This document shows positions 11,531 to 12,792 of a DNA stretch of 36,109 nucleotides, in pieces; the stretch's first letter is position 1, and each line of letters begins with the position of its first letter. Both the position numbers and the translations under genes were made by a program. The notes under the pieces are model-generated. The model worked only from the letters and a program-made list of their open reading frames with translations. It was not told the DNA's origin and did no database searches. Origin of the DNA: a virus. Lineage: Duplodnaviria > Heunggongvirae > Uroviricota > Caudoviricetes. The DNA lies in IMG/VR virus record IMGVR_UViG_641736116_000027; one strand, given 5' to 3'.

Positions 11531-12064
11531 TTAGCGTGGAAAGATTTGTGTAGTGTTCTGAATGCTCTCAGTAAATAGTAATGAATTATCAAAGGCATAG
11601 TAATATCTTTTATGTTCGTGGATATTTGTAACCCATCGGAAAACTCCTGCTTTAGCAAGATTTTCCCTGTATTGCTGAAATGTGATTTCTCTTGATTTCA
11701 ACCTATCATAGGACGTTTCTATAAGATGCGTATTTCTTGAGAATTTAACATTCACAACCTTTTTAAGTCCTTTTATTAACACAGTGTTATCGTTTTCTAA
11801 CACAATGTGAATATTATCTGTGGCTAGATAGTAAATATAATGTGAGACATTGTGACGTTTTAGTTCAGAATAAAACAATTCACAGTTTAAATCTTTTCGC
11901 ACTTGATCGAATATTTCTTTAAAAATGGCAACCTGAGCCATTGGTAAAACCTTCCATGTGATACGAGGGCGCGTAGTTTGCATTATCGTTTTTATCGTTT
12001 CAATCTGGTCTGACCTCTTTGTGTTTTGTTGATGATTTATGTCAAATATTAGGAATGTTTTCAA
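11531..12064 (-). CDS. ybcV: YbcV-like protein (lambda right-arm putative envelope protein), 177 aa
   Basis: Minus-strand ORF in an AT-rich segment between bor and cos, at the coordinates expected for the lambda right-arm ORF. Confidence 0.75.
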
Positions 12065-12226
12065 TTAATAGTATTGGTTGCGTAACAAAGTGCGGTCCTG
12101 CTGGCATTCTGGAGGGAAATACAACCGACAGATGTATGTAAGGCCAACGTGCTCAAATCTTCATACAGAAAGATTTGAAGTAATATTTTAACCGCTAGAT
12201 GAAGAGCAAGCGCATGGAGCGACAAA

Positions 12227-12433
12227 ATGAATAAAGAACAATCTGCTGATGATCCCTCCGTGGATCTGATTCGTGTAAAAAATATGCTTAATAGCACCAT
12301 TTCTATGAGTTACCCTGATGTTGTAATTGCATGTATAGAACATAAGGTGTCTCTGGAAGCATTCAGGGCAATTGAGGCAGCGTTGGTGAAGCACGATAAT
12401 AATATGAAGGATTATTCCCTGGTGGTTGACTGA
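12227..12433 (+). CDS. ybcW: YbcW-like small protein (68 aa)
   Basis: 68-aa ORF at the position of the small lambda right-arm ORF and DLP12 ybcW. Confidence 0.6.
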
Positions 12434-12597
12434 TCACCATAACTGCTAATCATTCAAACTACTTAACCTGTGACAGAGCCAACACGCAGTCTGTCACTGT
12501 CAGGAAAGTGGTAAAACTGCAACTCAATTACTGCAATGCCCTCGTAATTAAGTGAATTTACAATATCGTCCTGTTCGGAGGGAAGAACGCGGGATGT

Positions 12598-12792
12598 TCA
12601 TTCTTCATCACTTTTAATTGATGTATATGCTCTCTTTTCTGACGTTAGCCTCCGACGGCAGGCTTCAATGACCCAGGCTGAGAAATTTCCGGACCCTTTT
12701 TGATCAAGAGCGATGTTAATTTGTTCAATCATTTGGTTAGGAAAGCGGATGTTGCGGGTTGTTGTTCTGCGGGTTCTGTTCTTCGTTGACAT
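12598..12792 (-). CDS. ylcI: YlcI-like small protein with ribbon-helix-helix-like fold pattern (64 aa)
   Basis: Basic N-terminus (MSTKNRTRRTTTRNIRF) followed by a strand-helix-helix pattern (IEQINIALDQ...NFSAWVIEACRRRL). Lies about 200 bp from cosN. Confidence 0.6.
   Translation of the reverse strand: MSTKNRTRRTTTRNIRFPNQMIEQINIALDQKGSGNFSAWVIEACRRRLTSEKRAYTSIKSDEE

Follow-up and report, generated by a model that had tools for sequence, protein, structure and literature searches.

The segment described here, positions 11531-12792, is part of a 36,109-nt stretch of DNA (IMG/VR virus record IMGVR_UViG_641736116_000027), and this whole stretch is referred to as the window. The S-R-Rz lysis genes lie to the left of the segment, and the cohesive-end site cosN and the packaging gene Nu1 lie to its right. 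Three small open reading frames (ORFs) are present in the ORF table at the coordinates and on the strands assigned to them by an earlier sequence-only reading of this DNA. The ybcV-like gene (lambdap78; DUF1398, PF07166) probably occupies 11531-11941 on the minus strand and encodes 136 residues from its ATG. The ybcW-like gene (lambdap79; phrog_657) occupies 12227-12433 on the plus strand and encodes 68 residues, and the ylcI-like gene (DUF3950, the YlcI/YnfO family; PF13132, NF041551) occupies 12598-12792 on the minus strand and encodes 64 residues. They are called ybcV, ybcW and ylcI below. The 12-nt cohesive-end sequence of cosN, GGGCGGCGACCT, has a single exact match in the window (12992-13003, plus strand), assigned by its identity to the lambda ends. 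Nu1 (13181-13726, plus strand), called from its ORF and annotation, encodes the small terminase subunit and is the first gene of the packaging operon; it is divergent from ylcI across a 388-nt spacer. The start of ylcI is located 200 nt from cosN, and this distance together with its strand agrees with the earlier description of a gene transcribed towards the lysis genes from beside cos.

Positions 10900-13200 of the window match the right-hand end of lambda, and that of its near relatives, at 97.6-98.3% identity. The segment itself is 100% identical to a prophage of Escherichia coli O157:H7 PV15-279 and ~99% identical to DLP12 of K-12. Judged by this identity, the three genes are already known, as lambdap78 and lambdap79 of lambda and as an ORF annotated as YlcI/YnfO family in some lambda records. 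The sequence-only reading held that none of them has an established function, and indeed the searchable literature yielded no paper giving any of the three a role. It also took the stretch between the lysis cassette and cos for a slot for accessory genes (morons), which is borne out by what lies between bor and cos. A moron is recognised by its presence or absence at the same position among close relatives and by its deviant base composition. A promoter and terminator of its own and expression from the repressed prophage are further marks, on which the promoter scan and the DLP12 transcripts described below bear. The GC content of the bor-to-cos slot is 31-43%, compared with 49-55% in the flanks, as expected for accessory DNA, and the gene content differs among close relatives, with five different gene contents found downstream of near-identical ylcI. 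The left-hand neighbour of the three genes in this slot is the cassette of bor (10946-11239, minus strand), the serum-resistance lipoprotein gene (PF06291 Lambda_Bor, E 1e-30; phrog_260), which shares its strand with ybcV and ylcI.

The neighbours of ylcI were located by tblastn in 80 IMG/VR contigs with a YlcI at least 95% identical to that of the window, and the 76 contigs with at least 3 kb of downstream sequence were counted. The set of ybcW, ybcV and bor follows ylcI in 36 of the 76. In the others, the downstream content is bor only (25 contigs, with bor beginning 554 nt from the start of ylcI), only a ybcW-like gene of 79% identity (10 contigs), ybcW with ybcV (one contig) or none of ybcW, ybcV and bor (four contigs). 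Hence ylcI is found with neither ybcV nor ybcW in 29 of the 76 viral contigs, and the same holds in all the satellite contexts described below. When the contigs were picked by a near-identical YbcV, 58 of 60 had the other two genes; these copies are 99% identical, i.e. they are copies of one DNA block, so that their co-occurrence reflects common descent rather than coupling. Among 5426 complete E. coli genomes, ylcI DNA is present in 3785 (~70%), at 8369 places and in at most 12 places per genome, and the whole block is present in 1359. A prophage of enterotoxigenic E. coli (ETEC1747) with a DUF1441-type small terminase carries ybcV and a ybcW-like gene, and a six-frame profile search of this prophage for a DUF3950 gene found none.

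The three genes are separate, independently assorting cassettes and not one system. Their grouping did not withstand the check for co-occurrence across prophages, since ylcI occurs on its own, ybcV and ybcW occur without DUF3950, and ybcW sits on a cassette of its own. ylcI travels with cos and the small-terminase module, and its distance from Nu1 is constant even in 14 contigs where Nu1 is just 36-52% identical. ybcV is cargo that is sometimes found downstream. ybcW is a separate cassette inserted between ylcI and ybcV in the opposite orientation, and it interrupts the tighter ynfO-ydfO pair of Qin-type phages.

The borders of this inserted cassette were obtained by blastn. The homology of the window to Qin and ev099 runs from 13200/12995 to 12630 and resumes at 12020; these breakpoints define a 610-bp indel cassette at 12021-12629 (assigned to neither strand) that replaces ~50 bp of Qin-type sequence and carries ybcW together with the final ~10 codons of ylcI. 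YbcW is an acidic protein that matches phrog_657 with an E-value of 7.5e-48. One may ask whether ybcW is merely a chance ORF on a conserved piece of DNA, with the segment as neutral filler in a permissive spot between essential modules. The ratio of nonsynonymous to synonymous substitution rates (dN/dS) of ybcW against its 79%-identical variant is 0.85, with only 21 differences to count; taken alone, codons 1-18 give 1.3 and the rest of the gene 0.53. The overall and the early value fit such an origin. So do the Pfam scan, in which YbcW has no family, the single-sequence AlphaFold model, which has three helices at a predicted local distance difference test (pLDDT) score of 62 and gives meaningless fold matches, and the phage records, in which ybcW is confined to ~40 lambda-like genomes. 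However, the ORF is intact in the 79%-identical variant that travels without ybcV, a GGAG Shine-Dalgarno sequence stands intact 7 nt upstream of ybcW, and the ybcW mRNA is regulated in K-12 (PMC7660256). For ylcI and ybcV, purifying selection excludes this explanation. As a whole we consider the filler explanation unlikely. An imperfect hairpin, CCTGTGACAG...CTGTCACTGTCAGG, is located at 12468-12505 (plus strand) between the convergent stop codons of ybcW and ylcI, and may act as a terminator in both directions; a T-run is missing, and the hairpin was not called in the terminator scan.

For ybcV, the longest reading (11531-12064, minus strand) matches PF07166 with an E-value of 3.4e-46 and 156.6 bits, well above the Pfam cut-off of 22, and over residues 40-177 the protein is 79% identical to YdfO (E 4.5e-71), whose structure was solved by nuclear magnetic resonance (PDB 2HH8). 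With its score above the cut-off and its full-length similarity to a solved member, the protein belongs to DUF1398. The 177-residue version that starts from a TTG at 12064, as in NC_001416-style annotation, is probably over-extended, and we prefer the 136 residues from the ATG at 11941, because K-12 annotates 136 residues, because this ATG has a GGAAGG Shine-Dalgarno sequence that is found in Qin too, and because upstream of it the sequence shared with Qin-type phages extends for only 79 nt. The dN/dS of YbcV is 0.23 against YdfO and 0.35 against ev099, and the GC content of the gene, 31-33%, is the lowest in the region. No support was found for the labels 'head protein' (PHROGs, RefSeq) and 'putative envelope protein' (older lambda records) given to the DUF1398 gene. 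Stress induces the related ydfO, and over-expressing this gene is cited as a protection from oxidative stress (PMC4077768).

In Qin, ev099 and PhiR42_1, ynfO (DUF3950, 77 residues) is followed 42-58 nt further on by a DUF1398 gene (ydfO) on the same strand, with no ybcW. This arrangement is an argument for regarding YlcI and DUF1398 as a pair of the toxin-antitoxin or abortive-infection kind, in which YlcI would be a ribbon-helix-helix (RHH) antitoxin and autorepressor, and DUF1398 the effector. P0161, a protein of 177 residues from the representative library, has DUF3950 from YlcI residue 21 onwards fused in frame to DUF1398 and reads as a fusion of the two partners; it may descend, as a true fusion, from a ynfO-ydfO pair of the Qin type or be an artefact of a frameshift or deletion. 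The partners nevertheless occur singly, ylcI without a DUF1398 gene in 39 of the 76 contigs and in all satellites, and DUF1398 without DUF3950 in ETEC1747. The genes of a type II toxin-antitoxin pair are adjacent, co-directional and co-inherited, whereas in the window 656 nt and a gene on the other strand separate the two. Moreover, the expression of ybcV is separately PdhR-dependent (PMC7660256), YlcI has no more than ~14 residues beyond its RHH core, and these are unconserved, and over-expressed YdfO is cited as protective and not as toxic (PMC4077768). No PADLOC defence model matched at a meaningful E-value (best 0.017-0.07). We consider such a pair highly improbable, and the anti-defence function for which this place had been pointed out gains no support from the same scan.

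YlcI matches PF13132 with an E-value of 5.4e-20 (71.4 bits against a cut-off of 25) and the NCBIfam model NF041551 (YlcI_YnfO_N) with 36.6 bits against 30, and all 58 aligned relatives match PF13132 as well, which places the protein in DUF3950. The family is small, with 141 matching cluster representatives out of 1.8 billion, and all members that carry an organism name are from Enterobacterales. Relative to the 73%-identical copies of HK97-type prophages, the dN/dS of YlcI is 0.04-0.05 at saturated synonymous sites (dS >1); it is the protein that is conserved, and not the DNA beside cos. YlcI is a real, strongly constrained protein. In the 58-member alignment, R16, F17, F37, S38, W40, V41 and C45 are invariant, and the family motif can be written as K-x-I-R-F-P-(helix)-...-N-F-S-A-W-V-(helix). 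The basic N-terminus noticed in the sequence-only reading, MSTKNRTRRTTTR, is present, and the strand-helix-helix pattern that it described is conserved across the family. The name "orf-64" was considered for ylcI and rejected; in lambda it denotes lambdap73, which lies between Q and S.

The diversity of the family was obtained only with a profile made from distant members, for the initial homologue and genome searches were swamped by contaminant lambda DNA. Near-identical lambda segments occur in assemblies labelled Streptomyces, Pseudomonas, Cohnella, Flavobacterium, Staphylococcus aureus and others (L003-L043, P0001-P0120), often on contigs of 3.4-3.6 kb or ~48.4 kb, and also in the record of Campylobacter phage CJLB-4. 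Such copies are apparently lambda DNA that was used as a control or spike-in and has contaminated public assemblies, and the ~3.6-kb size matches that of the nanopore control strand. A third DUF3950 copy in E. coli CP178306 (L044:5941-6189), 56% identical over its best segment, is a frameshifted pseudogene of the ynfO type.

The 64-residue protein had also been likened to RHH DNA-binding proteins. The AlphaFold model of YlcI, built from the 58-sequence alignment, is extended up to residue 18, followed by a helix (19-32), a four-residue turn and a second helix (37-61), with a mean pLDDT of 74.9 and values of 78-89 over residues 11-50. The N-terminal strand is not assigned in it because a monomer was modelled. 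The model otherwise has the RHH topology, i.e. a strand, helix A, a tight turn and helix B within ~45 residues. In a Foldseek search with this model, at least 10 of the 16 listed matches belong to RHH proteins, namely two to Arc, three to CdbA and one each to NikR, omega, 1y9b, AtaR2 and ORF56, with no E-value below 1.7. An hhalign comparison of the family core with ten RHH domains gave P = 0.0086 and placed YlcI 12-32 (TRNIRFPNQMIEQINIALDQK) on Arc 9-29 (QFNLRWPREVLDLVRKVAEEN) in the correct register for the strand and helix A. In lenient Pfam scans of the 58 members, RHH_1 was matched by one (E 0.24) and HicB_lk_antitox by three. A direct sequence search of the PDB with YlcI found no relative, and the family profile run against PDB sequences found no RHH protein; it matched the small-terminase DNA-binding domain alone, which was contributed by fusion proteins in the alignment. 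The model, the Foldseek list and the Arc register agree with the RHH-like character given to the protein earlier, and no single test is significant. Since it is three weak lines that agree, the RHH fold of YlcI is probable and not proven.

In K-12, ybcW and ylcI form a convergent, overlapping transcript pair as seen by RNA sequencing (PMC12288877). A site for PdhR was found by systematic evolution of ligands by exponential enrichment in the ybcV-ybcW spacer of DLP12, and both mRNAs are ~10-fold down in a pdhR mutant (PMC7660256). The reported PdhR 17-mer, ATCTGGTCTGACCTCTT, is present as an exact match at 12003-12019 (plus strand), in the spacer between the divergent ybcV and ybcW of the window, where it forms a PdhR-box-like site; no chance match is expected in the window. 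In a CRISPR interference (CRISPRi) screen of lambda, bor and lambdap78 were non-essential, and ylcI was not among the tested genes (PMC10695390). lambdap79 was essential by CRISPRi, yet it is listed as non-essential from the literature in the same table (PMC10695390). Polarity is the likely cause of this result, because ybcW lies on the strand of the late (pR') transcript, upstream of Nu1. Late transcription crosses the segment on the plus strand to reach Nu1, and the CRISPRi result fits a polar block of it. From this direction of late transcription it would follow that ylcI, ybcV and bor, all on the minus strand, can be expressed while the prophage is quiescent and that late transcription runs against them, and that ybcW would be co-transcribed with the late genes.

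Several sequence elements lie between ylcI and Nu1. An inverted repeat at 12862-12894, ATCAATTAATACG / CGTCATAATTGAT (assigned to neither strand), is 85% complementary, is placed 70-100 nt upstream of the ylcI start and is conserved in DLP12 and Qin; it is a candidate operator only. A consensus scan gave a sigma-70-like site, GTGACA-16-TATCAT (12929-12956, plus strand), with 10 of 12 matching positions. It is the best match in the region, points towards cos and Nu1 and overlaps a palindrome (12939-12954), and going by the sequence it may be taken as a lead and not as evidence of function. GGGTCCT at 12962-12968 is a putative match to cosQ of lambda. An Rfam scan of positions 9000-14000 gave no match inside 11531-12792. 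Outside the segment, the same scan gave a sub-threshold match to the Salmonella small RNA isrJ at 9382-9461 on the plus strand (30.4 bits against a gathering score of 37; E 0.0096), immediately ahead of the holin gene, at the place expected for the late leader (6S) RNA region of lambda.

DUF3950 genes are found in two further contexts. In HK97-type E. coli prophages (L225-L228, also L045), the 73%-identical copy is flanked by the lysis genes and the HNH-TerS-TerL module, antisense to the late operon, with its start 40 nt from the start of the HNH gene. The larger and more diverse branch of the family (35-45% identity) belongs to satellites of Klebsiella, Proteus and E. coli, namely phage-inducible chromosomal islands (PICIs) and capsid-forming PICIs (cf-PICIs). 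There, DUF3950 is a lone opposite-strand gene, convergent with alpA and int and divergent across 145-193 nt from an operon running from primase to capsid/portal genes. The spacers (L050-L059, ~5800-6200; L045:7445-7589) contain iterated, element-specific repeats, such as the three copies of GTGCACAAACAC in L049 and the two of GGTACGTACC in L045, which from their sequence look like operators of a repressor-operator switch. Lambda cosN was searched for in the satellite loci and is absent, so DUF3950 did not hitch-hike there with cos. In the lambda, HK97-type and satellite contexts, DUF3950 points away from the first gene of the packaging or replication operon, a divergent layout characteristic of small repressors that regulate their own expression.

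Five satellite proteins of 120-129 residues consist of DUF3950 fused to the first ~53 positions of Terminase_2, the small-terminase DNA-binding domain (SF6-type). They are encoded in PICI-like islands (L045:7590-8363; L046-L049), and a second, stand-alone DUF3950 gene adjoins in E. coli L045-L047. The fusion recurs in five proteins with 44-67% identity and is therefore not a sequencing artefact. One such PICI-like island, in E. coli CP027459 (L045:8641-11776), adjoins a fragment of a prophage small-terminase gene, beyond which an HNH gene, a DUF3950 gene and lysis genes follow; this layout matches the helper-embedded satellites of bioRxiv 10.1101/2022.07.18.500453.

These fusions speak for a different role of YlcI, namely one in packaging itself, in which it would bind the cosQ side of cos or the small terminase and adjust or redirect the recognition of cos, for instance to exclude competing phages or satellites. 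By loose analogy, this would resemble the Rpp proteins of PICIs. ylcI remains tied to the packaging module where the other cassettes come and go, and its distance even from divergent types of Nu1 is fixed. These points argue in this direction, as do the same placement beside HNH-TerS-TerL modules and the absence of DUF3950 where the packaging module is of the DUF1441 type (ETEC1747). On the other hand, ylcI is antisense to the late transcript and so should be repressed just at packaging time. In cf-PICIs, the DUF3950 gene has alpA and the primase genes as its neighbours and is remote from the gene of the small terminase, and the bor-cos genes tested in lambda, a set that leaves out ylcI, are listed as non-essential (PMC10695390). 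Besides, Rpp is unrelated to DUF3950 (PMC6739421). We also considered DUF3950 as Rpp and rejected this, Rpp being a winged helix-turn-helix protein (PMC6739421). A direct packaging role is unlikely in our opinion.

We propose, with moderate confidence, that the bor-to-cos region is built of cassettes and that YlcI acts in it as a local transcriptional regulator of the RHH type. Of the three proteins, only the 64-residue one looks like a regulator worth testing. YlcI would most likely fold as an RHH dimer and bind DNA through its N-terminal strand, in which, by alignment with Arc, T12, N14 and R16 are predicted to contact bases and I15 and F17 to sit in the core. In the quiescent prophage, transcription of ylcI would start at a leftward promoter of the gene itself within the ~200-nt spacer beside cos, and during lytic growth convergent, Q-antiterminated late transcription would shut it off. 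YlcI may be an autorepressor that probably also controls its downstream gene (DUF1398 in Qin-type phages) and/or the divergent packaging operon. ybcV would be an AT-rich cargo gene with its own host-regulated (PdhR) promoter, and ybcW would be read within the late transcript from the inserted, opposite-orientation 610-bp cassette. What the analysis shows is the identity of the genes, their independent assortment, the structure of the indel, purifying selection on YlcI and YbcV and the conserved divergent placement of DUF3950 genes; the probable RHH fold, the DNA binding of YlcI, the timing of its expression and its regulatory targets are inferred.

Several points weigh against this proposal. 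A hotspot tolerant of insertions could by itself explain why the gene lies between the lysis and the packaging genes. The YlcI model is that of a monomer, so that the defining intermolecular β-sheet, with which RHH homodimers read the major groove at repeated operator half-sites, could not form, and the ten RHH sequences used for hhalign were written out by hand rather than drawn from a database. The transcript evidence for ylcI comes from the cryptic prophage DLP12 and not from a lambda lysogen. The consensus promoter scan gave as many sites as expected by chance, and no ylcI promoter was identified by it. The conservation of the inverted repeat at 12862-12894 gives no independent support, because DLP12 and Qin share the whole cos region. 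A k-mer comparison of the flanks of lambda-type and HK97-type ylcI returned chance-level words only, and the repeat is not shared between them, although the predicted DNA-reading strand is almost identical between the two YlcI types.

A broader version of the regulator proposal can be put forward, which we regard as distinctly improbable. DUF3950 would be an unrecognised class of RHH switch regulators of Enterobacterales temperate elements, serving as the resident repressor of PICIs and cf-PICIs and silencing the terminase operon in lysogens. If this were true, the homologue beside cos in lambda-type and HK97-type phages would silence the terminase operon in the lysogen, thereby keep the cos site in the chromosome from being cut, and might let helper and satellite engage in cross-talk, and the fusions of DUF3950 with the TerS domain would be satellite proteins that target helper packaging sites. 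The one cf-PICI paper that was searched mentions no resident repressor of this kind, and none is known to have been described for PICI or cf-PICI elements. In the searchable literature no function is given to the DUF3950 family; the cf-PICI paper is silent on YlcI/YnfO, and another source does no more than name it among the components of Enterobacter cf-PICIs (PMC13612085).

No phage is better studied than lambda, yet a very strongly constrained gene 200 nt from its cos, present in ~70% of complete E. coli genomes, is without an assigned function. What is new here is the probable fold of DUF3950, its linkage to packaging modules and its presence at regulatory junctions of satellites, which together make a modest, testable lead. 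A false lead is removed at the same time, in that the three genes should not be treated as a single system in further study. With its probable RHH fold, its linkage to the packaging module and its relatives in PICIs, a "hypothetical protein" becomes the subject of a specific and cheap experiment.

Compared with known systems, the window resembles the right end of lambda most closely, with bor, lambdap78, lambdap79 and the YlcI/YnfO ORF being the same genes in the same order and on the same strands; the two differ by ~2% point changes and in nothing of substance. DLP12 of K-12 (borD, ybcV, ybcW, ylcI, nohD) likewise has the gene order and strands of the window, the DNA identity with lambda and DLP12 being 97.6-99%. 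Qin-type phages (nohA and ynfO-ydfO; ev099, PhiR42_1) share the DUF3950 gene beside cos and Nu1 and the DUF1398 gene next to it, both antisense to the late operon. They differ in being without ybcW, whereas the window has the 610-bp cassette in between, and in the C-terminus of the protein, YlcI having 64 residues and YnfO 77. The Rpp proteins of E. coli PICIs are, like YlcI, small satellite or phage proteins linked to the small terminase and cos specificity, but they are Nu1-related winged helix-turn-helix proteins that dimerise by a coiled coil (PMC6739421).

With the Arc, Mnt, CopG and MetJ repressors, among them Arc and Mnt of the P22 immI region, YlcI has in common its small size, a basic N-terminal arm and the strand-helix-helix order. 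The N-I-R-F-P of YlcI matches the N-L-R-W-P of Arc, and ylcI is a phage-borne gene facing a divergent operon, as are genes of the Arc/Mnt type. No sequence or fold score between YlcI and these repressors is significant, and the NFSAWV at the start of helix B is specific to DUF3950. The satellite DUF3950 genes differ from ylcI in lying between alpA and the primase genes and not beside cos, in the longer inter-helix loop of many of their products and in the fusion of some of them to another domain. They are nevertheless of the same Pfam family as ylcI, and like it they are lone opposite-strand genes divergent from a long operon.

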